A DNA stretch of 64,000 nucleotides from Escherichia coli (lineage in GTDB: Bacteria > Pseudomonadota > Gammaproteobacteria > Enterobacterales > Enterobacteriaceae), in NCBI RefSeq assembly GCF_044324875.1, contig NZ_CP172185.1; one strand, written 5' to 3'. Shown piece after piece: positions 6,358 to 48,166 of the stretch. Position 1 is the stretch's first letter, and each line of letters begins with the position of its first letter. Below the pieces are notes generated by a model that was not told where the DNA came from, searched no databases, and was given only the letters and a program-made list of their open reading frames with translations. The position numbers and the translations under genes were made by a program.

Positions 6358-7820
6358 TCAATCGTCAACTTTCACGCCTGCTGTTGTGCAGCATTCTCGG
6401 CAGCACGACGCTGATTTCCGGCTGTGCCCTGGTACGTAAGGATTCTGCACCTCATCAACAGCTCAAACCGGAACAAATCAAACTGGCCGATGATATTCAT
6501 CTTGCCAGCTCCGGCTGGCCGCAGGCGCAGTGGTGGAAACAACTCAATGACCCGCAGCTGGATGCGCTGATCCAACGGACGCTAAGTGGTTCACACACCC
6601 TCGCCGAAGCGAAACTGCGGGAAGAAAAAGCGCAGTCCCAGGCCGATTTGTTAGATGCCGGTTCACAATTACAGGTCGCAGCGTTAGGGATGCTCAACCG
6701 CCAACTTGTCTCGGCGAACGGCTTTTTAAGCCCTTATGCGATGGATGCGCCAGCACTGGGTATGGACGGGCCGTACTATACGGAAGCCACAGTAGGTTTG
6801 TTTGCCGGACTGGATCTCGATTTGTGGGGTGTGCATCGCTCAGCGGTTGCCGCTGCCATTGGCGCGCATAATGCCGCGCTGGCAGAAACCGCAGCAGTAG
6901 AGCTATCGCTGACCACGGGCGTAGCGCAGCTTTATTACAGTATGCAGGCCAGCTATCAGATGCTCGATCTGTTAGAACAAACACGCGATGTGATTGATTA
7001 CGCGGTAAAAGCGCACCAGAGTAAAGTGGCGCACGGTCTGGAAGCGCAAGTGCCTTTCCACGGCGCGCGGGCACAGATTCTGGCGGTCGATAAACAAATT
7101 GCTGCCGTTAAAGGGCAAATCACCGAAACGCGAGAATCTCTGCGTGCATTGATTGGCGCAGGAGCCAGCGATATGCCGGAGATCAGACCGGTGGCATTAC
7201 CGCAAGTCCAGACCGGCATTCCGGCGACACTCTCTTATGAGTTGCTCGCCAGACGCCCGGATCTGCAAGCGATGCGCTGGTATGTTCAGGCGTCATTAGA
7301 TCAGGTGGATTCCGCGCGGGCGTTGTTCTACCCGAGCTTTGATATCAAAGCGTTTTTCGGCCTTGATGCCATCCACCTGGATACCTTATCCAAAAAAACC
7401 AGTCGCCAGTTCAACTTTATCCCGGGTCTGAAATTGCCGCTGTTTGACGGTGGACGGTTGAATGCCAATCTCGAAGGCACTCGCGCCGCCAGCAACATGA
7501 TGATTGAACGTTACAACCAGTCAGTACTGAACGCGGTGCGCGACGTTGCCGTCAACGGCACGCGTCTGCAAACGCTTAACGACGAGCGAGAGATGCAGGC
7601 TGAACGCGTGGAAGCAACGCGCTTCACCCAGCGCGCTGCCGAGGCCGCCTATCAACGCGGCTTAACCAGCCGCTTACAGGCCACCGAAGCCCGGTTGCCA
7701 GTGCTTGCCGAGGAGATGTCATTACTGATGCTGGACAGCCGCCGGGTGATCCAAAGCATTCAGTTGATGAAATCGCTGGGCGGCGGGTATCAGGCAAGTC
7801 CCGTCGTCGAGAAAAAATAA
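6354..7820 (+). CDS. mdtP: Outer-membrane efflux lipoprotein (OMF family)
   Basis: 488-aa ORF; lipoprotein signal (LISGCAL); 4-nt overlap with mdtO. Confidence 0.9.
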   Translation: MINRQLSRLLLCSILGSTTLISGCALVRKDSAPHQQLKPEQIKLADDIHLASSGWPQAQWWKQLNDPQLDALIQRTLSGSHTLAEAKLREEKAQSQADLLDAGSQLQVAALGMLNRQLVSANGFLSPYAMDAPALGMDGPYYTEATVGLFAGLDLDLWGVHRSAVAAAIGAHNAALAETAAVELSLTTGVAQLYYSMQASYQMLDLLEQTRDVIDYAVKAHQSKVAHGLEAQVPFHGARAQILAVDKQIAAVKGQITETRESLRALIGAGASDMPEIRPVALPQVQTGIPATLSYELLARRPDLQAMRWYVQASLDQVDSARALFYPSFDIKAFFGLDAIHLDTLSKKTSRQFNFIPGLKLPLFDGGRLNANLEGTRAASNMMIERYNQSVLNAVRDVAVNGTRLQTLNDEREMQAERVEATRFTQRAAEAAYQRGLTSRLQATEARLPVLAEEMSLLMLDSRRVIQSIQLMKSLGGGYQASPVVEKK

Positions 7821-7861
7821 AATGTCTGCCGCGTGATGGCTGTCACGCGGTATTTCGTTTC

Positions 7862-7905
7862 GTCACGTCAAAACTGACGACAGCCTGTTTTTCGTCAGAG
7901 TTTTG
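7862..7905. promoter_or_regulatory. Inverted-repeat upstream activating sequence, candidate FhlA site for fdhF
   Basis: Inverted repeats (gtcacgtcaaaactgacgac ... tcgtcagagttttg) about 60-100 bp upstream of the sigma54 element. Confidence 0.35.
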
Positions 7906-7950
7906 AATAAATAGTGCCCGTAATATCAGGGAATGACCCCAAATAAAATG

Positions 7951-7966
7951 TGGCATAAAAGATGCA
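7951..7966 (+). promoter_or_regulatory. Sigma54 (-24/-12) promoter of fdhF
   Basis: TGGCATaaaagaTGCA matches the GG-N10-GC sigma54 consensus, about 50 bp upstream of the fdhF start. Confidence 0.6.
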
Positions 7967-8017
7967 TACTGTAGTCGAGAGCGCGTATGCGTGATTTGAT
8001 TAACTGGAGCGAGACCG

Positions 8018-10165
8018 ATGAAAAAAGTCGTCACGGTTTGCCCCTATTGCGCATCAGGTTGCAAAATCAACCTGGTCGTCGATAACGGCAAAATCGTCCG
8101 GGCGGAGGCAGCGCAGGGGAAAACCAACCAGGGTACCCTGTGTCTGAAGGGTTATTATGGCTGGGATTTCATTAACGATACCCAGATCCTGACCCCGCGC
8201 CTGAAAACCCCCATGATCCGTCGCCAGCGTGGCGGCAAACTCGAACCTGTTTCCTGGGATGAGGCACTGAATTACGTTGCCGAGCGCCTGAGCGCCATCA
8301 AAGAGAAGTACGGTCCGGATGCCATCCAGACGACCGGCTCCTCGCGTGGTACGGGTAACGAAACCAACTATGTAATGCAAAAATTTGCGCGCGCCGTTAT
8401 TGGTACCAATAACGTTGACTGCTGCGCTCGTGTCTGACACGGCCCATCGGTTGCAGGTCTGCACCAATCGGTCGGTAATGGCGCAATGAGCAATGCTATT
8501 AACGAAATTGATAATACCGATTTAGTGTTCGTTTTCGGGTACAACCCGGCGGATTCCCACCCAATCGTGGCGAATCACGTAATTAACGCTAAACGTAACG
8601 GGGCGAAAATTATCGTCTGCGATCCGCGCAAAATTGAAACCGCGCGCATTGCGGACATGCACATTGCACTGAAAAACGGCTCGAACATCGCGCTGTTGAA
8701 TGCGATGGGCCATGTCATTATTGAAGAAAATCTGTACGACAAAGCGTTCGTCGCTTCCCGCACAGAAGGCTTTGAAGAGTATCGTAAAATCGTTGAAGGC
8801 TACACGCCGGAGTCGGTTGAAGATATCACCGGCGTCAGCGCCAGTGAGATTCGTCAGGCGGCGCGGATGTATGCCCAGGCGAAAAGCGCCGCCATCCTGT
8901 GGGGCATGGGTGTAACCCAGTTCTACCAGGGCGTGGAAACCGTGCGTTCTCTGACCAGCCTCGCGATGCTGACTGGTAACCTCGGTAAGCCGCATGCGGG
9001 TGTAAACCCGGTTCGTGGTCAGAACAACGTGCAGGGTGCCTGCGATATGGGCGCGCTGCCGGATACGTATCCGGGATACCAGTACGTGAAAGATCCGGCT
9101 AACCGCGAGAAATTCGCCAAAGCCTGGGGCGTGGAAAGCCTGCCAGCGCATACCGGCTATCGCATCAGCGAGCTGCCGCACCGCGCAGCGCATGGCGAAG
9201 TGCGTGCCGCGTACATTATGGGCGAAGATCCGCTGCAAACTGACGCGGAGCTGTCGGCAGTACGTAAAGCCTTTGAAGATCTGGAACTGGTTATCGTTCA
9301 GGACATCTTTATGACCAAAACCGCGTCGGCGGCGGATGTTATTTTACCGTCAACGTCGTGGGGCGAGCATGAAGGCGTGTTTACTGCGGCTGACCGTGGT
9401 TTCCAGCGTTTCTTCAAAGCAGTTGAACCGAAATGGGATCTGAAAACGGACTGGCAAATCATCAGTGAAATTGCCACTCGTATGGGTTATCCGATGCACT
9501 ACAACAACACCCAGGAGATCTGGGATGAGTTGCGTCATCTGTGCCCGGATTTCTACGGTGCGACTTACGAAAAAATGGGCGAACTGGGCTTCATTCAGTG
9601 GCCTTGCCGCGATACTTCAGATGCCGATCAGGGGACTTCTTATCTGTTTAAAGAGAAGTTTGATACCCCGAACGGTCTGGCGCAGTTCTTCACCTGCGAC
9701 TGGGTAGCGCCAATCGACAAACTCACCGACGAGTATCCGATGGTACTGTCAACGGTGCGTGAAGTTGGTCACTACTCTTGCCGTTCGATGACCGGTAACT
9801 GTGCGGCACTGGCGGCGCTGGCTGATGAACCTGGCTACGCACAAATCAATACCGAAGACGCCAAACGTCTGGGTATTGAAGATGAGGCATTGGTTTGGGT
9901 GCACTCGCGTAAAGGCAAAATTATCACCCGTGCGCAGGTCAGCGATCGTCCGAACAAAGGGGCGATTTACATGACCTACCAGTGGTGGATTGGTGCCTGT
10001 AACGAGCTGGTTACCGAAAACTTAAGCCCGATTACGAAAACGCCGGAATACAAATACTGCGCCGTGCGCGTCGAGCCGATCGCCGATCAGCGCGCCGCCG
10101 AGCAGTACGTGATTGACGAGTACAACAAGTTGAAAACTCGCCTGCGCGAAGCGGCACTGGCGTAA
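8018..10165 (+). CDS. fdhF: Formate dehydrogenase H, selenocysteine-containing molybdoenzyme; UGA at 8435-8437 decoded as Sec
   Basis: ORFs 8018..8437 and 8486..10165 are in the same frame, separated only by an in-frame TGA; N-terminal Fe-S cysteine cluster (CPYCASGCK...CLKG); the joined product is the right length for FdhF. Confidence 0.92.
8438..8480 (+). other. SECIS stem-loop directing selenocysteine insertion at the fdhF UGA
   Basis: Sequence immediately 3' of the UGA (cacggcccatcggttgcaggtctgcaccaatcggtcggtaatggc) can form the hairpin expected for the fdhF SECIS. Confidence 0.75.
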
Positions 10166-10178
10166 TACAGTCCTTTCT

Positions 10179-10207
10179 ACAGCCTCCTTTCGGAGGCTGT
10201 TTTTTTA
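10179..10207 (+). terminator. Rho-independent terminator of fdhF
   Basis: acagcctcc-tttc-ggaggctgt hairpin followed by a T7 run. Confidence 0.75.
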
Positions 10208-10258
10208 TCCATTCGAACTCTTTATACTGGTTACTCCCTACCCAATCGTATTATCAAA

Positions 10259-10948
10259 ATGAAAAAAATTATCGCATTGATGTTGTTTTTGACATTCTTT
10301 GCCCACGCGAACGACTCCGAGCCTGGCAGCCAGTATTTAAAGGCAGCAGAGGCCGGGGACCGACGCGCACAATATTTTCTTGCCGACAGCTGGTTTAGCT
10401 CCGGCGATTTGAGCAAAGCCGAATATTGGGCACAGAAAGCCGCCGACAGCGGTGATGCTGATGCCTGCGCGCTGTTGGCGCAGATCAAAATCACCAATCC
10501 GGTCAGTCTGGACTATCCACAAGCAAAAGTTCTTGCAGAGAAAGCAGCGCAAGCGGGGAGTAAAGAAGGTGAAGTAACGCTGGCGCATATTCTGGTAAAT
10601 ACGCAAGCGGGTAAACCGGATTATCCAAAGGCGATTTCGCTGTTAGAAAACGCTTCGGAAGATCTGGAGAACGACTCTGCCGTCGATGCCCAAATGCTGC
10701 TTGGTTTGATTTACGCCAACGGCGTGGGCATTAAGGCCGACGATGACAAGGCAACCTGGTATTTCAAACGCAGCTCTGCGATTTCACGAACCGGTTATTC
10801 CGAGTACTGGGCGGGAATGATGTTCTTAAACGGTGAAGAAGGTTTTATCGAGAAGAACAAACAAAAGGCGCTGCACTGGCTGAACCTGAGCTGTATGGAA
10901 GGGTTTGATACCGGGTGTGAAGAGTTTGAAAAATTAACTAACGGTTAA
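10259..10948 (+). CDS. yjcO: Sel1/TPR-like repeat periplasmic protein
   Basis: 229-aa ORF with signal peptide and repeated Sel1-like motifs. Confidence 0.85.
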   Translation: MKKIIALMLFLTFFAHANDSEPGSQYLKAAEAGDRRAQYFLADSWFSSGDLSKAEYWAQKAADSGDADACALLAQIKITNPVSLDYPQAKVLAEKAAQAGSKEGEVTLAHILVNTQAGKPDYPKAISLLENASEDLENDSAVDAQMLLGLIYANGVGIKADDDKATWYFKRSSAISRTGYSEYWAGMMFLNGEEGFIEKNKQKALHWLNLSCMEGFDTGCEEFEKLTNG

Positions 10949-25217: not shown

Positions 25218-26867
25218 TTACTGATTTTCCTCAATCAACAACGCTTCAAGCAAATCGAGATCGTGCAGTAATTTTTGCAGCGTTTCGTTGCTGATCTCCC
25301 GCGTGGCGCGCAGGTGGTACAGTTCAGCACGTTCAGAACGCAATGCCGCCAGACGGAAGCGACGCTCAAGGTTCTCTTCCTGCACGGAACTTTCAACGTC
25401 GTTACGTCCATCGGCGCGACGACGCAGGTTACCAATGACGCGAGAACTGACCTCCGTAAGCAGCTGGTTATCGATATTCTCTTCGGTATCCGCCGCCAGA
25501 CGCTCCTCCATTTTCTGGATCGCCACAATCGCCACTTCTGCCGTTGCCGCTCGCGCAATACGTTCCTCTTTCAATTGTTGCGAATGGTCCGCGACTTCAA
25601 TGTGTTGTAGCAGAATAGGCAACATCACCACGCCGACAAACAGCGAGAAGAGAATGACACCAGCCGCCAGGAATACCAGCTCATAGCGCGCCGGGAAGAC
25701 GTTACCATCCGGCAAGAGCAGCGGGATAGAGAGCACACCGGCCAGAGTGATCGCCCCACGCACCCCGGCGAAAGACGCGATCAGGATTTCTCGTGTGGTC
25801 CACGAACCAAACTCCATCGGCTTCTTCTTCAGGAAGCGGTTACTGAACTTTTTCATCGTCCACAGCCAGCCGAAACGGACCAGCATCAGCGCCGCATAAA
25901 TCAGAATGATATCGGTAAACAGCATCCAGATTTCGACGTTAGGGTCGATTTCTGCCGCCATCAGCGACGTCTCCAGAATACCCGGCAGCTGCAGACCTAA
26001 CAGCAGGAATACCATGCCGTTAAAGACAAATTCCAGCATCGCCCAGGTACTGTTTGCGCGCAGGCGCATTGCCAGCGGCGCACGGCGCATCACACCGGAG
26101 CGGGTGATGGTCATCCCGGCGGCAACCGCAGCGAGGATGCCGGAAACGCCAATATGTTCGGCAATCAGATAAGAAGCGAATGGCAGCAAGAACAGTAGAA
26201 CAATCTGCGTCGCGGGTTCATCACCGCCCCAGCGGCTGAGGAATCGCAGCGAGCGACCGTACAGCCAGCTCACCACAAAACCGGCGAGAATACCGCCAAT
26301 GGCTACTTTCATAAATTCGACCGTCGCACCGCCAACGGTGAAGATCATCGTCCCCATCGCCACTGCTACGGCAAACTTCAACGACACCAGGCCAGAGGCG
26401 TCATTCATCAACGCTTCGCCCTGCAAAATGCCCATGATTTTTTTCGGGATGCGCCCTTCGCCAACAATCCCGGAGAGCGCCACAGCATCGGTCGGAGAAA
26501 GCACCGCCGCCAGCGCAAAGGCGGGGATCAGCGGAATGCCCGGCACCACCCAGTAAATAAGGAAGCCAATGCCGACCACGGTGACCACCACCAGCGCCAG
26601 CGCGAGGCCGAAAATCTCTCGACCATGTTCGAGAAATTCACGGGTCGGCGTTTTCCAGCCATCAGCGAACAGCAACGGCGGGATAAACAAGACTAAAAAG
26701 AGTTCAGGATCAAACTCCACATGCAAACCAAACGTCGGCCACGCCAGTAGCGCACCGATGGCGATTTGCATAAGCGGAAGCGGGATCTGAAAGGGCATGA
26801 CACGAGTGACCACCCCGGACAGCGAGACCACGAGGGTCATTATCAGTATGGTGAAGAAGATTTCCAT
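25218..26867 (-). CDS. yjcE: Na+/H+ exchanger family transporter
   Basis: 549-aa ORF with a membrane domain and a charged C-terminal tail. Confidence 0.9.
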   Translation of the reverse strand: MEIFFTILIMTLVVSLSGVVTRVMPFQIPLPLMQIAIGALLAWPTFGLHVEFDPELFLVLFIPPLLFADGWKTPTREFLEHGREIFGLALALVVVTVVGIGFLIYWVVPGIPLIPAFALAAVLSPTDAVALSGIVGEGRIPKKIMGILQGEALMNDASGLVSLKFAVAVAMGTMIFTVGGATVEFMKVAIGGILAGFVVSWLYGRSLRFLSRWGGDEPATQIVLLFLLPFASYLIAEHIGVSGILAAVAAGMTITRSGVMRRAPLAMRLRANSTWAMLEFVFNGMVFLLLGLQLPGILETSLMAAEIDPNVEIWMLFTDIILIYAALMLVRFGWLWTMKKFSNRFLKKKPMEFGSWTTREILIASFAGVRGAITLAGVLSIPLLLPDGNVFPARYELVFLAAGVILFSLFVGVVMLPILLQHIEVADHSQQLKEERIARAATAEVAIVAIQKMEERLAADTEENIDNQLLTEVSSRVIGNLRRRADGRNDVESSVQEENLERRFRLAALRSERAELYHLRATREISNETLQKLLHDLDLLEALLIEENQ

Positions 26868-27017
26868 GCGTTCCCTGTTTGCGATGTTTTTTATGATCTG
26901 AGAAAGACGTTATGCCTGAATTCTCATTTTTTCAGAATATCGCAAAAGCTCACACAATGTGCGGAGAAAATAAAAACGGGCAGCCATTGCCACCCGTTTT
27001 CAGAATCATATGAAAGA

Positions 27018-28367
27018 TTAGATAGCCCAGCCACCCGCATAGAAGGTCACCAGCGCCACAGCGATAACGACCGTACCGATGTTCAACTTGCGCCATTCGC
27101 CGGAAACCAGACGACCAATCACCAGAGTCGCGAAGCCGATCATGATGCCTGTTACGATGTTACAGGTCAGCACGATGAATACCGCCGTAACCAGACCCGC
27201 CATCGCATCAACAAAATCAGCAAAGTCGATTTTCGCCACGTTGCTCAGCATCAGCAGGCCAACGTACATCAGCGCTGGAGCCGTTGCGTACCCAGGAACG
27301 AGGTAAGAGAGCGGAGAGAGGAACAGAATCAGCAGGAACAGCACGCCAACGGTGATAGCCGTCAAACCGGTTTTACCGCCCGCCGCCGTACCCGCCGCAG
27401 ACTCAATGTATACCGCTGCCGGAGCTGCCCCCACCAGGCCAGAGAAAACGCTGCTCATGGAGTCAGTGGTCAGTGCTTTCCCGCCGTCGATGATCTGCCC
27501 GTCTTTATCCAGCAGGTTCGCCTGGCCGGCGACGGCACGGATAGTTCCGGTGGCATCAAATACTGCCGTCATCACCAGCGCCAGAACGCTTGGCAGGACT
27601 ACAGGATTCAGCGCGCCCATAATGTCCAGGCTGCCAATCAGTGAATTGCCGTTTTCATCGCTCAATGAAGGCATGGCGAAAACGCCGGAGAAATGGACGT
27701 TAGGATCGAAGATCAAACCGACAATTGAGATACCGATAATGGTCAGCAGAATGCCACCAGGGACTTTCAGTTTTTCCAGGCCGATGATCACCGCCAGACC
27801 TACCAGTGACATAATCACCGGGAAGGTCGCGAAATCACCCAGCGCAACGGGCAGACCATCAAGCGGGTTTTTAATCACCAGACCGACACCATTAGCGGCA
27901 ATGAGCAGCAGGAACAGACCGATACCGATCCCCGTGCCGTGCGCCACACCGTGCGGCAAGTTGCGCAAAATCCAGCTACGGATACCCGTGGCAGAAATTA
28001 CCGTAAACAGTACACCCATCAGGAACACAGCACCCAGCGCGACAGGTACGCTAATATGTTGCCCCAGCACCAGACTGAATGCGGTAAACGCCGTCAGGGA
28101 GATGGCGCAACCAATCGCCAACGGCAGATTAGCCCACAGACCCATCACGATAGAACCGAGTCCGGCAACCAGACAGGTCGCAACGAAAACTGCCGCAGGC
28201 GGGAAGCCTGCTTTACCCAACATGCCTGGAACGACGATAACCGAGTAGACCATCGCCAGAAATGTTGTTAACCCGGCAACCACTTCCTGACGGACAGTGC
28301 TTCCACGTTGTGAAATTTTAAACCAGGCGTCGAGTGAACCGCCGGTACGCGCTGATGGCGTAGACAT
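27018..28367 (-). CDS. ghxP: Guanine/hypoxanthine permease (NCS2 family)
   Basis: 449-aa polytopic ORF (the K-12 yjcD locus). Confidence 0.9.
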
Positions 28368-28482
28368 AAGAAAACATCCCCTGAGAGTTTAATTTTCGTC
28401 AAGATGCGTGGCGGACAATCCCCTGCCAGCGAAACGTTATCTTCCTGCTCCAGGTTTGCGACAAATTGGTGCGTCGCAAAAA

Positions 28483-28497
28483 AGCAAACGTTTAGCT
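28483..28497. promoter_or_regulatory. PurR-box-like palindrome upstream of ghxP
   Basis: AGCAAACGTTTAGCT resembles the PurR operator core GCAAACGTTTGC. Confidence 0.4.
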
Positions 28498-28623
28498 CCG
28501 CGCATACAAAACGGGTGGTAAAAAAAGCAAACGATTATCCGGCGATCATAGCGGCTTTTTCAACCGAAGTTTGCTGCTTTTTTCTCTTTTATTGTCTTGA
28601 CGATGAAAAACCAGGCAATTGAT

Positions 28624-28638
28624 GCGCAAACGTTATCG
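28624..28638. promoter_or_regulatory. Second, weaker PurR-box-like element
   Basis: GCGCAAACGTTATCG. Confidence 0.3.
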
Positions 28639-28774
28639 TCGATGCGCAAGATTGCAGCGTTATCGAGCCGCATACCGTTCAGGATTGCGATAAAAAATCG
28701 TCTGAGATGACAAAAATATTGCGGCTAAAAAGTGTACTTTTACACTGGAGAAGAAACGCCGGTGACATACAATT

Positions 28775-28915
28775 AAAGCATCAACACCAACCGGAACCTC
28801 CACCACGTGCTCGAATGAGGTGTGTTGACGTCGGGGGAAACCCTCCTGTGTACCAGCGGGATAGAGAGAAAGACAAAGACCGGAAAACAAACTAAAGCGC
28901 CCTTGTGGCGCTTTA
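28775..28915 (+). ncRNA. ryjA: Candidate small RNA convergent with soxR (RyjA-like)
   Basis: From memory, K-12 has the sRNA RyjA in the soxR-yjcD intergenic region. TACAAT -10-like element near 28766; the transcript would end at the shared hairpin. Strand and ends are uncertain. Confidence 0.3.
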
Positions 28916-28920
28916 GTTTT
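28891..28920. terminator. Bidirectional terminator hairpin overlapping the soxR stop codon
   Basis: Perfect 11-bp inverted repeat actaaagcgcc-cttgt-ggcgctttagt with T runs on both strands. Confidence 0.7.
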
Positions 28921-29377
28921 GTTCATCTTCCAGCAAGCGTGCGCCGGTACCTTCTTCTCCTAAGCGGTCGCCCGGGTTACGCAATGGGCAATCACTGCGC
29001 GAAAGGCAGCCACAACCAATACATCCGTCCAGCTCGTCACGCAGCGCCACTAAGGTATGAATGCGCCGATCCAACTCTTCTCGCCATTGGGACGAAAGCT
29101 GTTTCCACTCTTTCGCACTTAATGTATGCCCTTCGGGCAACACGCCAAATGCTTCACGAATGGTCGCCAGCGGAATGCCAATACGCTGAGCAATTTTGAT
29201 GATTGCGACATATCGCAACACATCACGTTTATATCGCCGCTGATTGCCACTATTACGGATACTGCTAATCAACCCTTTGCTTTCATAGAAATGCAGCGCC
29301 GATACCGCCACACCGCTGCGTTTTGCCACTTCGCCGGGGGTTAGCAGCGCTTTAATGCGGGGTAATTTCTTTTCCAT
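28913..29377 (-). CDS. soxR: Redox-sensing MerR-family regulator with 2Fe-2S cluster
   Basis: 154 aa; C-terminal [12 protein letters not shown] cysteine cluster. Confidence 0.95.
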
Positions 29378-29388
29378 AAATCGCTTTA

Positions 29389-29406
29389 CCTCAAGTTAAC
29401 TTGAGG
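29389..29406. promoter_or_regulatory. SoxR operator in the soxS promoter
   Basis: Perfect palindrome CCTCAAGTTAACTTGAGG between divergent soxR and soxS. Confidence 0.7.
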
Positions 29407-29462
29407 AATTATACTCCCCAACAGATGAATTAACGAACTGAACACTGAAAAGAGGCAGATTT

Positions 29463-29786
29463 ATGTCCCATCAGAAAATTATTCAGGATCTTATCGCATG
29501 GATTGACGAGCATATTGACCAGCCGCTTAACATTGATGTCGTCGCAAAAAAATCAGGCTATTCAAAGTGGTACTTACAGCGGATGTTCCGCACGGTGACG
29601 CATCAGACACTTGGTGATTACATTCGCCAACGCCGCCTGTTACTGGCCGCCGTTGAGTTGCGCACCACCGAGCGTCCGATTTTTGATATCGCAATGGACC
29701 TGGGTTATGTCTCGCAGCAGACCTTCTCCCGCGTTTTCCGTCGGCAGTTTGATCGCACTCCCAGCGATTATCGCCACCGCCTGTAG
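29463..29786 (+). CDS. soxS: AraC-family superoxide-response activator
   Basis: 107-aa ORF (MSHQKIIQDLIAWIDEH...). Confidence 0.95.
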   Translation: MSHQKIIQDLIAWIDEHIDQPLNIDVVAKKSGYSKWYLQRMFRTVTHQTLGDYIRQRRLLLAAVELRTTERPIFDIAMDLGYVSQQTFSRVFRRQFDRTPSDYRHRL

Positions 29787-29788
29787 TT

Positions 29789-31384
29789 TTATTGCCCGCG
29801 CGTTAACTCCCGCGCGGGTAATTGCTCCATCCATTGCATAAACACCTGCGGCGGCATCGCCTTCGCAAAGAACCATCCCTGGCAATAGCGCACGCCGCGT
29901 TTGCGCAGCCAGTTAACCTGTTCCTCAGTTTCGACGCCTTCAGCGATCGTTTTTAACCCCAGACTGTGCGCCAGCTCGATGATGTGTTCCGCAATCAAAT
30001 GACTGGTTTTATGGGTGGTCAGCGTCTCAACAAACGATTTATCGATTTTCAAAATATCGACATTCAATGATTTAAGGTTATGCAAGTTAGAGTAGCCAAT
30101 ACCAAAATCATCAATTGCCACTTCGTAACCAGCCTGGCGGAAAGCCAGAATAATCGGCGTCATTTTGTCGACATCAAGAAATGCATGTTCAGTCACTTCA
30201 AATTTAATTTGCTGCGGACGCACCGCATATTGCTCTGTTTTCTGGTTGGTTCGCGCTATCAACCGTGACGTATGAAAATCGGAGGCCGACAGGTTAATAG
30301 AAACATAGCGATCGACATGTGTTGCCAGGTACACGCCCAGATCGCGGAAGACATTATCAATAACATAATCAGTTATCTGTTCGATCATCCCCTCCTTTTC
30401 TGCCAGCGGAATAAACTCTGCCGGATTCATTACTTGCCCCTGCTCACCAGGCCAACGTATCAATGCTTCAGCGCCGGTACATTTTTCTGTTTTGATATCG
30501 ATTATTGGCTGGTAATAAAGGCAAAGTTGATGTTTTTCGAGGGCGCGTTGCAATTTGCGTTTGGGAGACAAATAGTTTTGTCGAATACGTAGCCAGAGTA
30601 ATAACAGAACAAGACTCCCCAAAATACCGGCGGGTAACGCAAAAATAAGATGATTATAAAAATGCGCTATAAGACGTTGATATGAAGTCGCAACAATGGC
30701 TGCAATCGGGCGTTTTGTCGAATAAACTGTCGCATATAAATAGCCATTTCTTTGTACGGTTAAATCATTCAAATGAATCAGCGGAGAAAACGTTGCTGCC
30801 GAGGCCTCGTTGCTTAACGAGAAAAAGGTTTTTGTCACCGTATCATACACACCCCATTGCAATGTCGGATCATCGGACATCACTTCACTCCAGAAGAGAG
30901 GGTTGATAACCGCCACATAATTTCCCCGCTGCATATAGGTCATTTTATAGCCAGAGAAAAAAGGCGTATCGCGGTAATAATAGATAGAAACGTTAGGTTC
31001 ACGCTTATAATCGGCCGGTGCAATCGTATAGCCGTTTACAGGCGCTATCAGCGATGAGCATAAAAAATGGTTATCACGGGCATAGATCAATTCATTAATA
31101 TAAAGATAGCCACGAATAATATTCAACATTCGCTTTTGATGGGCTGGAGTGCAAACTTGCCCCTGATAGCGTTCAGCAGCATCGCTCACTAAATCTGCCT
31201 GGCGAATGACCAGCTCGGATTTATCCAGCGCCAGCTGAGCAAAAGTTTGGAGCTGGCTATTCACTTCTGATTTTGCCCAAAGGAAGGCAATCCATAGCGA
31301 CAGAATGATGGGAAAGAGAACTAAAAAGATAATGCCCGGCAACGCCAGTAATTGGTGTCGTGCACGATGACTCATTGCTATCAA
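29789..31384 (-). CDS. pdeC: c-di-GMP phosphodiesterase with CSS sensor and EAL domain
   Basis: 531 aa; N-terminal TM and periplasmic domain, C-terminal EAL domain (EALIRW); the K-12 yjcC locus. Confidence 0.9.
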
Positions 31385-31804
31385 TTTCCTGCCTGTTTAT
31401 ACCCGGCCATTGCAAGGTGAAAACCCTGGGCACCGACGTCTTTAGATAAATCTTACGGTATAAATAGCACTTTTGCCTGATTTGAAATTGATACCTTTTT
31501 AATGGTCACCTGAATAAAAATAATTCATTGATATTCAAATTAATTTTCTACAGGAATGCAGAGGCGGCGGGAAGATATGCCCTTAATGCCACTGAAAAAA
31601 CCACATAATCTGTACGGCAATAAAAGTCACGGCCTAATCTGGCTAACAAACAATCAATTGTGATATAGTTCACAAAATTAATGAAACAAACAGAGTGTTT
31701 CATTTTTGTGTCCTGCAAGCCCCGCGATAGCCAGATTGTATCACGCCTCCCGTGAACAACGCCGCGCTGTCCGAGGCATCGGCTCTTTTCAGAGGAATTG
31801 TTTG

Positions 31805-32086
31805 ATGGCTACCCTCACCACTGGCGTGGTTCTTCTTCGCTGGCAACTTCTTAGTGCCGTAATGATGTTTCTGGCCAGCACACTCAACATCCGTTTTCGT
31901 CGGTCTGATTATGTCGGGCTTGCAGTGATCAGCAGCGGTCTGGGCGTGGTTTCTGCCTGCTGGTTCGCAATGGGGTTGCTTGGTATCACAATGGCGGATA
32001 TCACCGCCATCTGGCACAACATCGAGTCGGTGATGATAGAAGAGATGAATCAGACACCGCCACAATGGCCAATGATTTTGACTTGA
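31805..32086 (+). CDS. yjcB: Small inner-membrane protein
   Basis: Internal ATG (MATLTTGVVLL) preceded by GAGG; the longer ORF 31706..32086 starts at a non-ATG codon. Confidence 0.8.
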   Translation: MATLTTGVVLLRWQLLSAVMMFLASTLNIRFRRSDYVGLAVISSGLGVVSACWFAMGLLGITMADITAIWHNIESVMIEEMNQTPPQWPMILT

Positions 32087-32091
32087 TATAT

Positions 32092-32121
32092 AGAAGCCTC
32101 CAAAACGGAGGCTTCTTTTTT
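32092..32121. terminator. Bidirectional terminator between yjcB and ssb
   Basis: agaagcctcc-aaaac-ggaggcttct hairpin followed by T6. Confidence 0.7.
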
Positions 32122-39964: not shown

Positions 39965-40015
39965 TGAACTGCACCCCAAATGTTGGACATAATCTGACAT
40001 CTGAAGGTGCAGTTT

Positions 40016-40537
40016 ATGAAACATTCATTTGAAGTAAAACTTGCCGCTGTAAATCATTACCTGGCCGGTCATGCAGGCATCATTTCTACGGCAAAACTCT
40101 TTCAACTTTCTCACACCAGCCTCTCACACTGGATTAATCTTTTTCTTCTTCACGGTCCTCGGGCACTGGATTGCAGACACAAGCGTAGCTATTCTCCTGA
40201 AGATAAACTTTGCGTGGTTCTTTATGCTCTCGGGCATTCTGAGTCTCTACCCCGGGTAGCTGCCCGGTTTAACATTCCCAGCCACAACACGGTTAAAAAC
40301 TGGATAAAAGGCTACCGCAAATCTGGTAATGAGGCCTTTATCAGGCGCTGGAAGGAGAAAAGCATGACCCGTTCTGATGATACCCATGAAAACGAGGCAA
40401 ACATGACGCCGGAAGAGATGAAGAATGAGCTGCGTTATCTTCGCGCAGAAAATGCATATCTGAAAGCCATGCAGGAGCATCTCCTGGAAAAAAAGCGCCA
40501 GGAGCTGGAGAAAAAACGAAAGTCATCCGGAGCCTGA
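40016..40537 (+). CDS. IS3-family transposase OrfA (HTH and leucine-zipper part)
   Basis: 173-aa ORF (MKHSFEVKLAAVNHYLAGH...), followed by orfB in the -1 frame. Confidence 0.85.
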   Translation: MKHSFEVKLAAVNHYLAGHAGIISTAKLFQLSHTSLSHWINLFLLHGPRALDCRHKRSYSPEDKLCVVLYALGHSESLPRVAARFNIPSHNTVKNWIKGYRKSGNEAFIRRWKEKSMTRSDDTHENEANMTPEEMKNELRYLRAENAYLKAMQEHLLEKKRQELEKKRKSSGA

Positions 40538-40639
40538 GGTGCGGATACTGCCAGTCTGATCTGTTAAAGGCTGCAGGGCTGGCCAGAAGCACGCTGTACT
40601 ACCAGCTGTCACTGCAGAAGGCTAAGGACAAGTATGCTG
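40538..40639 (+). pseudogene. 5' fragment of IS3-family orfB, cut by the IS21-family insertion
   Basis: The -1 frame reads LRCGYCQSDLLKAAGLARSTLYYQLSLQKAKDKYA and stops at the IS21-like left end. Confidence 0.5.
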
Positions 40640-40839
40640 CAAAATGGCATCTGAATCGATCGCAGTTTGGCATTCGAATCGATCATGATTTGGCATCCAT
40701 CTCCGATCACAGTTTGGCATCACAATCGATCACGATTTGGCATGCTTCCGATCATTGATTGGCATCCTGCCAGTCACTCCGGGAATTAACTCTTTTCACC
40801 ACAGTCTCCATTGCCGTGTTTAAACCAGTGGAGACGTCA

Positions 40840-42405
40840 ATGTCCAGAAAGAGAAAATCCAGGAGCACTATGGAAACCTGTTTTAAGATCCTTCAGCTCA
40901 AGTTCGACAAGAAGCTGACTAACCGTTGTATCGGACTGACGTTACACATCAGCGCCTCAACCGTTTTTGAGGTTCTTGCCCGCTTCAAAGCCTCTTCTCT
41001 GTCATGGCCATTACCTGCTGATATATCCCATGACACGCTGGAGAAACTCATTTTTCCGCCCAAAGACACCTTTGCATCAGAGCTTGTAATGCCTGACATG
41101 TTGTACTTCGATACGGAAATGAGAAAACCAGGTGTGACGCGGCAACTGTTGTGGATGGAATACAAGGCACAGGCGGGTAACAAAGCGATGGGATACTCGC
41201 ACTTCTGCCGTTGCTACCGGGAGTGGAAAAAAACGCGACGTCTCTCCATGCGCCAGGAGCATCGTGCCGGCGAAAAGCTTTTTATCGACTTCTGTGGTCC
41301 TACGGTTCCTGTTATTAATCCGGACACCGGTGAGATACGCCGCGTGGCAATCTTCGTGGCCGTAATGGGGGCGTCCAACTATACCTACGTTGAAGCGTGC
41401 GAAGGTCAGGACATGATGTCATGGTTAAATGCCCACAGCCGTTGCCTGACCTTCCTGGGCGGCGTACCGAAGCTGCTCATCCCCGATAACCTCAGAAGCG
41501 CAGTGAAAAAGGCCGATCGATATGAGCCTGTCATCAACGACAGTTATCAGGCACTGGCTGAGCACTATGGCACGGTTATCATCCCGGCCCGACCACGCAA
41601 ACCTAAAGATAAACCAAAAGCAGAAAACGGCGTCCTCATCGTTGAACGATGGCTTCTTGCCCGCATCCGTAATGAAACCTTCCACACGCTCAGGGCGCTG
41701 AATGCGCGCCTTAGGGAGTTACTGACAGACATGAATAACCGGCCAATGAAGGGGTACGGCAATCAAACCCGTGCAGAACGCTTCCGCATACTGGATGCGC
41801 CAGCACTCTCTCCGCTGCCTCTGGCACCTTATGAATACACGGAATACAAAGCTGTGAAGGTTGGCCCTGACTACCACGTTGAATATGCCCGTCACTGGTA
41901 CTCCGTTCCACACGAACTGGTCGGTCAGCGTCTGTCACTGAAGGCGGGGCAGTCGGTGGTACAGCTCTGGCACAAGGGGCAGTGTGTGGCGCAACATCCG
42001 CGCAGCACACATGAATATAAACACACAACCAATCCGCTTCACATGCCAGAGCGCCACCGGCAGCACGGGACATGGACACCGGAACGCCTGATCGAGCAGG
42101 GAAAACGTACGGGCCCGTCCACAGGCCGGGTGGTTGAATCCATGCTGAAGGCAAAACCCCATCCGGAACTGGCTTATCGTGCAGTTCTGGGGCTGCTGGC
42201 ACTTCAGAAAAAATACGGCCCGGAACGGCTGGAAAAGGCCTGTTACGTTGCCCTGCACTATAACGCCCCTGACAGACGCTTTATCGACAATCTGCTGCGT
42301 CACCATCGGGAGAACCTGGAGCTTCCATTATCCCGCCAGGGCGAACAACATCCGGCATATGCTTCAGAGCATGAAAACCTGCGTGGTCCGGGCTACTACC
42401 ACTGA
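40840..42405 (+). CDS. istA: IS21-family transposase IstA (HTH and DDE integrase)
   Basis: ORF 40759..42405 with an HTH N-terminus and integrase core; start chosen at MSRKRKSRS and uncertain. Confidence 0.8.
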   Translation: MSRKRKSRSTMETCFKILQLKFDKKLTNRCIGLTLHISASTVFEVLARFKASSLSWPLPADISHDTLEKLIFPPKDTFASELVMPDMLYFDTEMRKPGVTRQLLWMEYKAQAGNKAMGYSHFCRCYREWKKTRRLSMRQEHRAGEKLFIDFCGPTVPVINPDTGEIRRVAIFVAVMGASNYTYVEACEGQDMMSWLNAHSRCLTFLGGVPKLLIPDNLRSAVKKADRYEPVINDSYQALAEHYGTVIIPARPRKPKDKPKAENGVLIVERWLLARIRNETFHTLRALNARLRELLTDMNNRPMKGYGNQTRAERFRILDAPALSPLPLAPYEYTEYKAVKVGPDYHVEYARHWYSVPHELVGQRLSLKAGQSVVQLWHKGQCVAQHPRSTHEYKHTTNPLHMPERHRQHGTWTPERLIEQGKRTGPSTGRVVESMLKAKPHPELAYRAVLGLLALQKKYGPERLEKACYVALHYNAPDRRFIDNLLRHHRENLELPLSRQGEQHPAYASEHENLRGPGYYH

Positions 42406-42421
42406 CAGAAGGAACAACAGT

Positions 42422-43177
42422 ATGAGTGATAACCTGTTAAACAAACTGACCCAACTGAAACTCCCGGCGATGGCCGGGAGCCTGATACGGCAGCGGGAAA
42501 CGCCTCAGACCTACGACGAACTGTCGTTCGAGGAAAGGCTGACGCTGCTGGTTGATGACGAGCTTCTGAGCAGGGAAAACAGCCGTGTGGCACGGTTGAG
42601 AAAAAATGCCGGCCTGAAATACCAGGCAACACCGGAAGGGCTGCGCTATCCGGCCTCAAGAGGTCTGCGGGCTGAACAGATGAGAGAACTGCTGAACGGC
42701 CACTACATAACCCACAGGAAAAACCTGCTGATAACCGGTCCGACAGGATGTGGCAAGAGCTGGATAGCCAATGCGCTGGGCGAACAGGCATGTCGACAGA
42801 AACACAGCGTCCGGTACTGTAGAACCGGGCGATTACTGGAACAACTGGCTCAGGGACGTGTTGATGGCAGCTGGCTGAAATATCTGAAACAGTTGCAAAA
42901 AATACAGGTTCTAATCCTGGACGATCTGGGGCTGGAACAGTTAAGTAACGCCCAGTGTAATGACCTTCTGGAGCTCATAGAGGATCGTTACGGACAAAGC
43001 AGCACGATAGTGGTAAGCCAGTTCCCGGTAGATAAATGGCATGGTCTGATGGAGAACCCAACAACAGCAGATGCCATCCTGGACAGACTGGTACATAACT
43101 CACACCGAGTGGTCCTTCAGGGAGAGTCACTGAGGAAAAATCCCCCGGTAGTGGAAAGCAGCGAAAAAACGCGTTAA
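42422..43177 (+). CDS. istB: IS21-family helper ATPase IstB
   Basis: Walker A GPTGCGKS and Walker B (LILDD); internal ATG of ORF 42179..43177, 17 nt after the istA stop. Confidence 0.85.
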   Translation: MSDNLLNKLTQLKLPAMAGSLIRQRETPQTYDELSFEERLTLLVDDELLSRENSRVARLRKNAGLKYQATPEGLRYPASRGLRAEQMRELLNGHYITHRKNLLITGPTGCGKSWIANALGEQACRQKHSVRYCRTGRLLEQLAQGRVDGSWLKYLKQLQKIQVLILDDLGLEQLSNAQCNDLLELIEDRYGQSSTIVVSQFPVDKWHGLMENPTTADAILDRLVHNSHRVVLQGESLRKNPPVVESSEKTR

Positions 43178-43284
43178 AAAGCGGTAGAAAAAGTTAAGTT
43201 CCCGGTTGATCGAATGGATGCGAATCGCTGATCGGACTTCGATGCCAATCCGTGATCGAATAGAGCGGAATACGCAGTATGCTG

Positions 43285-44020
<736 letters not shown>

Positions 44021-44041
44021 TAGGTTTTGGGGTTCAGTTCA

Positions 44042-48106: not shown

Positions 48107-48149
48107 GATGCTCTCCCAAAGATGAAATCTCTTGCTGGCATTACAAGAA

Positions 48150-48166
48150 TCATGCCAAAAATAATC
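48150..48166 (-). promoter_or_regulatory. Candidate sigma54 promoter of pspG
   Basis: Reverse strand reads TGGCATgattcTTGTAA (GG-N10-TG, -24/-12-like), about 45 nt upstream of the pspG start. Confidence 0.45.

Follow-up and report, generated by a model that had tools for sequence, protein, structure and literature searches.

The fdhF gene occupies positions 8018–10165 of the plus strand in the 64-kb stretch of E. coli DNA analysed here (the window), in the gene order mdtN-mdtO-mdtP-fdhF-yjcO-gltP-nrf, which agrees with the RefSeq annotation and is the chromosomal context of E. coli fdhF. It consists of 715 codons followed by TAA and encodes formate dehydrogenase H, an enzyme that contains selenocysteine and molybdopterin. 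When the interval is translated as a whole, its 716 codons contain a sole internal stop, at codon 140 (TGA, 8435–8437, plus strand); this in-frame UGA is assigned to selenocysteine from the sequence itself, from the X at position 140 of the corresponding PDB entries, and from the loci of other species. A Shine-Dalgarno-like GGAG can be read from the sequence 8 nt 5' of the ATG (8006–8009, plus strand).

In the mechanical list of open reading frames the gene appears as a pair of ORFs on the plus strand, both starting with ATG: one at 8018–8437 (139 residues), the other at 8486–10165 (559 residues). Their starts are offset by 468 nt, which is divisible by 3, so that they share a common frame; this frame is open directly from 8438, and 8486 is merely the first ATG that the ORF finder meets. 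The proposal of the sequence-only reading, that fdhF is split in the ORF track by an in-frame TGA, is thus borne out: both ORFs belong to one frame, and the TGA at 8435–8437 is the sole stop between them. The same reading had held that a naive gene caller would break the gene in this way; the mechanical track indeed does so, whereas RefSeq, annotated with PGAP, has a single fdhF CDS of 2148 nt with exactly the coordinates found in the window.

At the DNA level, the region 7800–10400 shares 99.9% identity with E. coli CFSAN018748, and of 5426 complete E. coli genomes, 5418 carry the fdhF region; identity to part of the species lies at 95–99%, corresponding to ordinary strain-level variation. 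A 66-nt segment around the recoding site falls into the band of at least 99% identity (which at 66 nt means identical) in 5405 of the 5420 matching E. coli records. No tRNA gene was detected in the 64-kb window, and no sel genes for the selenocysteine machinery occur in the annotated synteny around fdhF.

Transcription signals

On its upstream side, the fdhF transcription unit is bounded by a hairpin resembling an intrinsic terminator (7827–7852, plus strand), which follows the end of mdtP at 7820 and has 11 pairs and a T-rich tail; it folds with -19 kcal/mol (z -4.25). Downstream of the gene, a G+C-rich stem of 9 bp with T7 behind it (10179–10200, plus strand) represents the intrinsic terminator of fdhF; its fold of -16.7 kcal/mol (z -6.82) is matched in stability by 0 of 200 shuffles.

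Between the first of these hairpins and the gene lies a sigma-54 promoter of the -24/-12 type, GTGGCATAAAAGATGCA (7950–7966, plus strand). The same 17-mer is the sigma-54 ChIP-seq site OS41, which has been assigned to fdhF of E. coli K-12 (b4079) (PMC4591121). The pattern TGGCAY-N5-NTGCW is found upstream of 75 of the 106 orthologous loci with enough flanking sequence, among the matches listed. When up to 2 mismatches are allowed, the sigma-54 consensus is found 18 times across the whole window, with 27.5 expected by chance; the pattern is thus uninformative when taken by itself, and the promoter is therefore assigned from its identity to OS41 and from its conservation. A scan for sigma-70 promoters yields nothing upstream of fdhF, consistent with a sigma-54 promoter.

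Further upstream, an imperfect palindrome of the form TCAAAACTGACGA-N11-TCGTCAGAGTTTTGA (7868–7906, plus strand) stands out by its inverted repeat and its conserved spacing. The arms of the repeat are found at 7868–7875 and 7899–7906, and the core of the dyad is formed by TGACGA (7875–7880) and TCGTCA (7892–7897), separated by N11. Counted from the TGGCA element, the two half-sites are located 76 and 59 nt further upstream, a spacing that recurs in many fdhF loci of Enterobacteriaceae. From its position and conservation, read against what is known of the fdhF upstream activating sequence (UAS), we infer that the dyad at 7868–7906 is a candidate UAS for FhlA; a literature search on the FhlA UAS returned no source giving the fdhF site.

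Identity of the protein

Joined across the UGA, the two halves give a product of 715 residues that matches the PDB sequence 1aa6_A residue for residue over positions 1–715, with X at position 140 in both. The identical sequences in the PDB, all named 'FORMATE DEHYDROGENASE H', are those of entries 1aa6, 1fdi, 1fdo, 2iv2, and 7z0t. The NCBIfam model for the alpha subunit of formate dehydrogenase (TIGR01591) scores the product at 1089 bits against a cut-off of 666.25, in an alignment that runs unbroken across the UGA and places residues 6–685 on profile positions 1–672 of 672. The models for FDH-N, NapA, NasC, and other molybdoenzymes give the product scores far under their cut-offs. The contiguous alignment of the joined halves with FdhF, which had been named beforehand as a check, was thus obtained both against the structure and against the family model. 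The 575 codons 3' of the TGA contain no further stop, and their translation is identical to the functional enzyme.

The functional residues are likewise in place: Cys8, Cys11, Cys15, Cys42, His141, and Arg333 are each found at the expected position, and Sec140 corresponds to the UGA codon. We take the four cysteines to be the ligands of the [4Fe-4S] cluster, and Sec140, His141, and Arg333 to be the active-site residues of the FDH-H structure. The predicted FdhF of this strain is identical to the crystallised E. coli enzyme.

The SECIS element

Over its full extent in the Rfam family SECIS_2 (RF01988), the SECIS element covers 8430–8484 (plus strand), including a basal helix around the UGA; the assignment is based on the covariance model and on the pair counts described below. 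The match reaches 87.1 bits, above the gathering score of 70 (E 1.1e-18), and spans model positions 1–55 of 55; in the whole 64-kb window, SECIS_2 is among only three Rfam families that exceed their gathering scores. The sequence follows the Rfam consensus at all columns except for two that the model leaves variable.

The part of the element that would bind SelB is the minimal apical stem-loop, GGUUGCAGGUCUGCACC (8449–8465, plus strand), which comprises nt 15–31 counted from the U of the UGA and is defined here by the fold and by the published determinants. It begins 11 nt past the UGA; its loop, GGUC, is located at 8456–8459, the bulged U17 at 8451, and the loop residues G23 and U24 at 8457 and 8458. 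The fdhF SECIS has been described as a 40-nt element with a 17-nt apical stem-loop at nt 15–31, placed 11 nt after the UGA, in which the bulged U17 and the loop residues G23 and U24 are the determinants for SelB; according to the same review, mutation of U17 or G23 abolishes read-through of the UGA (PMC8659212). All of these published features are found in the window at the correct distance from the UGA.

The minimum fold of 8435–8480 has an energy of -14.9 kcal/mol and that of 8430–8484 of -19.7 kcal/mol, both giving a long interrupted stem-loop. These energies lie within the range of dinucleotide shuffles (z -1.33 and -1.23), 22–25 of 200 of which are as stable or better, and the minus strand of the segment folds slightly better (z -1.91). 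In absolute terms the hairpin is stable, but since its folding energy is no better than chance, energy was dropped as a discriminator, and the covariance model and covariation were used as evidence for the hairpin instead. The stem-loop that the sequence-only reading saw 3' of the UGA therefore stands as a SECIS of the fdhF type, by its score of 87.1 bits and its published determinants, whereas its stability as such is ordinary. Folding 8435–8480 for comparison with the fdhF SECIS structure, as had been suggested, does yield a hairpin at this place, and it matches RF01988 above the gathering score.

Comparative evidence for pairing

A scan of species-representative genomes with a degenerate pattern for the motif C-A-R-V-TGA-H-G-P returned at least 120 loci. 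Among the matches listed, 119 of 120 loci have the TGA within a reading frame that continues without stops in both directions, typically for about 140 or more codons upstream and 575 downstream, and for fewer where the retrieved sequence runs out at the end of the locus or contig; the taxa include Enterobacterales, Pasteurellaceae, and Shewanella as well as two Coriobacteriia. The remaining locus, from Rhizobiaceae, was left out as a chance match to the pattern, since its TGA is flanked by no more than 6 and 4 open codons.

From the matches listed, the 55-nt segments corresponding to the Rfam element collapse to 47 distinct sequences, the window included. In all 47, the bulged U17 and the GGUC loop with G23 and U24 are invariant. 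Measured over these sequences, in which columns 1–16 are fixed by the search pattern itself, 89.9% of the cells are paired when the bulge is placed at U17, as against 23–46% in controls with the 3' partners shifted by 1–3 columns. The Rfam structure as given, with the bulge at U18, yields 88.9% over the same 47 distinct sequences from the matches listed. This register was rejected: it leaves 11 broken cells at pair 22–34, which turn into 11 compensatory pairs when the bulge is moved to U17. The U17 register was adopted on these grounds, and it is also the published one (PMC8659212).

Two pairs of the apical stem, which covary through few lineage-level events (in Pasteurellaceae and Shewanella) as opposed to many independent ones, show this compensation over the 47 distinct sequences from the matches listed. 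Columns 20–36, which correspond to G15–C31 counted from the U of the UGA, are GC in 33 sequences and compensatory UA in 10; columns 23–34, which correspond to U18–A29, are UA in 34, compensatory AU in 9, and CG in 2. The changes on the 3' arm are non-synonymous, converting His-Gln to Leu-Lys in Pasteurellaceae, and the partner changes on the 5' arm are synonymous, falling on third positions of Ser and Val codons. Such a combination of non-synonymous 3'-arm and synonymous 5'-arm changes would be the signature expected of selection on RNA pairing, beyond that on the protein alone.

The element also varies in its lower stem and at the pairs flanking the bulge, for example with A, U, or C at alignment column 17 and A or G at column 38. 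The two homologues from Coriobacteriia keep GGUC at the same distance from the UGA but do not keep the stem register of E. coli. Variation in the lower stem and next to the bulge, including the apical variants of Pasteurellaceae and Shewanella, might set the efficiency of recoding at different levels in different lineages, and Coriobacteriia might use a structurally distinct SECIS, though we consider this rather improbable. Such a reading concerns other lineages; the element in the window is a canonical SECIS.

Alternative explanations for the interrupted frame

If the TGA were an inactivating nonsense mutation, fdhF would be a pseudogene from which only a fragment of 139 residues is made. The mechanical ORF finder breaks the gene at exactly this codon, and part of the ribosomes are reported to terminate at UGA140 (PMC4513850); the same TGA, however, lies between long open frames in 119 loci of other genera, among the matches listed, and its 66-nt surroundings are identical in nearly all E. 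coli records, with the count given above. The curated SECIS model matches directly 3' of the TGA, the 575 stop-free codons beyond it encode a sequence identical to that of the functional enzyme, and the solved structures are full length, with a special residue at position 140. Inactivation is therefore hardly credible. That the locus should hold two genes, one for a small N-terminal iron-sulfur protein (8018–8437) and one for a separate protein of 559 residues, is suggested by the ATG-initiated ORF at 8486 in the ORF list. Yet the 16 codons that separate the TGA from this ATG are open and in frame and encode residues 141–156 of FdhF, the alignment to TIGR01591 continues across them from residue 6 to residue 685, and RefSeq annotates one CDS; the chance of there being two genes is practically nil.

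A subtler alternative accepts read-through but attributes it to a near-cognate tRNA for Trp or Cys, which would decode the UGA without SelB or a SECIS, so that the hairpin would be incidental to the coding sequence. This would accord with a hairpin energy inside the shuffled range, but not with the invariance of the SelB-contact residues U17, G23, and U24 in the 47 distinct sequences from the matches listed, nor with the loss of read-through upon mutation of U17 or G23 (PMC8659212). Coding constraint by itself, moreover, predicts a pattern other than non-synonymous changes in the 3' arm paired with synonymous ones in the 5' arm, and the Rfam SECIS_2 score lies above the gathering threshold; this form of read-through is accordingly given a negligible probability. 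It is, by comparison, virtually certain that 8018–10165 (plus strand) is an intact E. coli fdhF, whose UGA140 is recoded as selenocysteine with the help of a 3' SECIS.

Discussion

The closest known system is fdhF of E. coli K-12 (b4079; PDB 1AA6, 1FDO, 2IV2, and 7Z0T), with which the gene in the window shares the identity over 715 residues, the 17-mer of the sigma-54 promoter, and the neighbours mdtP and yjcO, and from which the window copy has no functional difference. The genes fdnG and fdoG, for the alpha subunits of FDH-N and FDH-O, which are the two further selenocysteine formate dehydrogenases of E. coli, resemble fdhF in having a UGA with a 3' SECIS that is read by SelB, and their products belong to the same Mo-bisPGD superfamily as FdhF, with the motif ARV-U-HGP. 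FdhF differs as a cytoplasmic protein of about 80 kDa that is not known to carry a Tat signal. The protein encoded in the window reaches only 247.8 bits against the cut-off of 814 for the FDH-N model TIGR01553, and the hairpin only 35.8 bits against the gathering score of 63 for the Rfam family SECIS_3. Among other FdhF-like formate dehydrogenases, the FdhF subunit of hydrogen-dependent CO2 reductase (PDB 7qv7_S) is homologous over almost the entire length, residues 2–704 (E 1.9e-196), but comes from another organism and another complex; it is a homologue of the protein in the window and not the same protein.

On this basis, expression of the gene is explained as follows. Transcription starts from the sigma-54 promoter at 7950–7966, presumably activated by FhlA through the dyad at 7868–7906, and stops at 10179–10200. 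In the mRNA, the segment 3' of the UGA (about 8438–8477, with the apical part at 8449–8465) folds as a SECIS of the fdhF type, whose apical loop and bulged U would be bound by SelB carrying Sec-tRNA(Sec), as in the established bacterial mechanism; a ribosome nearing the UGA would then receive selenocysteine in place of termination by RF2. The genes for the selenocysteine machinery, selA, selB, selC (tRNA-Sec), and selD, are outside the window and are assumed to lie elsewhere in this genome. In the finished protein, Sec140 would be a ligand of the molybdenum centre, as described in published work. Within the formate hydrogenlyase complex, FdhF is the subunit that oxidises formate.

A segment of fdhF covering codons 130–179, with UGA140 and the SECIS at codons 141–153, supports 30–40% recoding to selenocysteine in vivo, the remaining ribosomes at UGA140 being terminated by RF2 (PMC4513850). 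For the SECIS in the window, SelB binding and insertion of selenocysteine are inferred from this published segment, the protein encoded in the window being identical to E. coli FDH-H. The identity of the gene, the UGA, the SECIS match with its determinants, its conservation and covariation, the full-length selenoprotein sequence, and the identity of the promoter to a mapped sigma-54 site are seen here directly; for SelB binding, insertion of selenocysteine, catalysis by Sec140, and activation by FhlA we draw on earlier publications about K-12, whose sequence is identical.

The site in the window is the textbook recoding site of fdhF, which is already fully described and to which the present locus adds nothing new. 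What it illustrates is how such genes fare in annotation: raw ORF tracks and naive gene callers split selenoprotein genes or turn them into pseudogenes, and a covariance scan with Rfam SECIS_2, together with an alignment of the full-length protein, resolves the split at once. Hairpin energy, by contrast, serves badly for recognising a SECIS when set against a covariance model or covariation. The fdhF site itself is the founding example of selenocysteine recoding in bacteria.

Conservation and naming of fdhF in E. coli

An fdhF match is present in nearly all complete E. coli genomes, being absent from 7 of 5426; between four and six of the matches in this collection sit on records labelled as plasmids, and the 66-nt segment that spans the recoding site carries one or two substitutions in 15 records. 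The product names that RefSeq records give to this one and the same gene are inconsistent, as matches H21 and H28 of the recoding segment illustrate: 'formate dehydrogenase N subunit alpha, selenocysteine-containing' is used in some, and 'formate dehydrogenase H subunit alpha, selenocysteine-containing' or simply 'formate dehydrogenase subunit alpha' in others.

Insertions and differences between strains

Compared with strain CFSAN018748, the window carries about 4.1 kb of extra sequence between tyrB and alr (39965-44039), which matches an IS21-family element (istA/istB, ISSso4-like) flanked by two IS1397 (IS3-like) transposase fragments; it is apparently one insertion sequence nested inside another. 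Coverage of at least 80% of this insertion as one place is found in only one of the 5426 E. coli genomes. The closest reference strain, for its part, has a lambdoid prophage with integrase and tail genes beside dusA (positions 13404-32103 of its locus L123), which the window lacks, running from 49281 straight into plsB, dinF, lamB, malK and other core genes. At the same reference-strain locus (NZ_CP028192.1, L123 4838-5551), the annotation treats aphA as a pseudogene containing an internal stop.

Regulatory sites and small RNAs in the window

The region upstream of pspG contains TGGCATGATTCTTGTA (48142-48157, minus strand), the same sequence as the sigma-54 ChIP-seq site OS40 (PMC4591121); judged by this identity, it is a second known sigma-54 promoter within the window. 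The Rfam scan places the Hfq-binding small RNA sraL (RF01408) at 28780-28920 on the plus strand, where it scores 153.3 bits and needs 39 to reach its gathering score; soxR adjoins it. It also returns naRNA4 (RF02564), a family of REP-type repeat RNAs, at 61524-61594 on the minus strand, where the 76.1 bits exceed the gathering score, and, as a sub-threshold match on both strands, a partial copy in the yjcO-gltP intergenic region (10953-11000).

fdhF-type loci in other genera

Among the matches listed for the CARV-TGA-HGP pattern in species-representative genomes, several genera have two separate fdhF-type loci, each with the motif and a SECIS: Pluralibacter gergoviae (L017/L018), Cedecea neteri (L055/L056) and Silvania (L061/L062 and L071/L072). 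Usually just one copy of such a pair, again among the matches listed, has a sigma-54 motif upstream. In the Coriobacteriia homologues (L026, 730-784, and L081, 617-671) the distance from the GGUC to the TGA is unchanged, and the bases flanking the GGUC are unpaired when tested in the E. coli register. These two homologues may have a SECIS of a different build.
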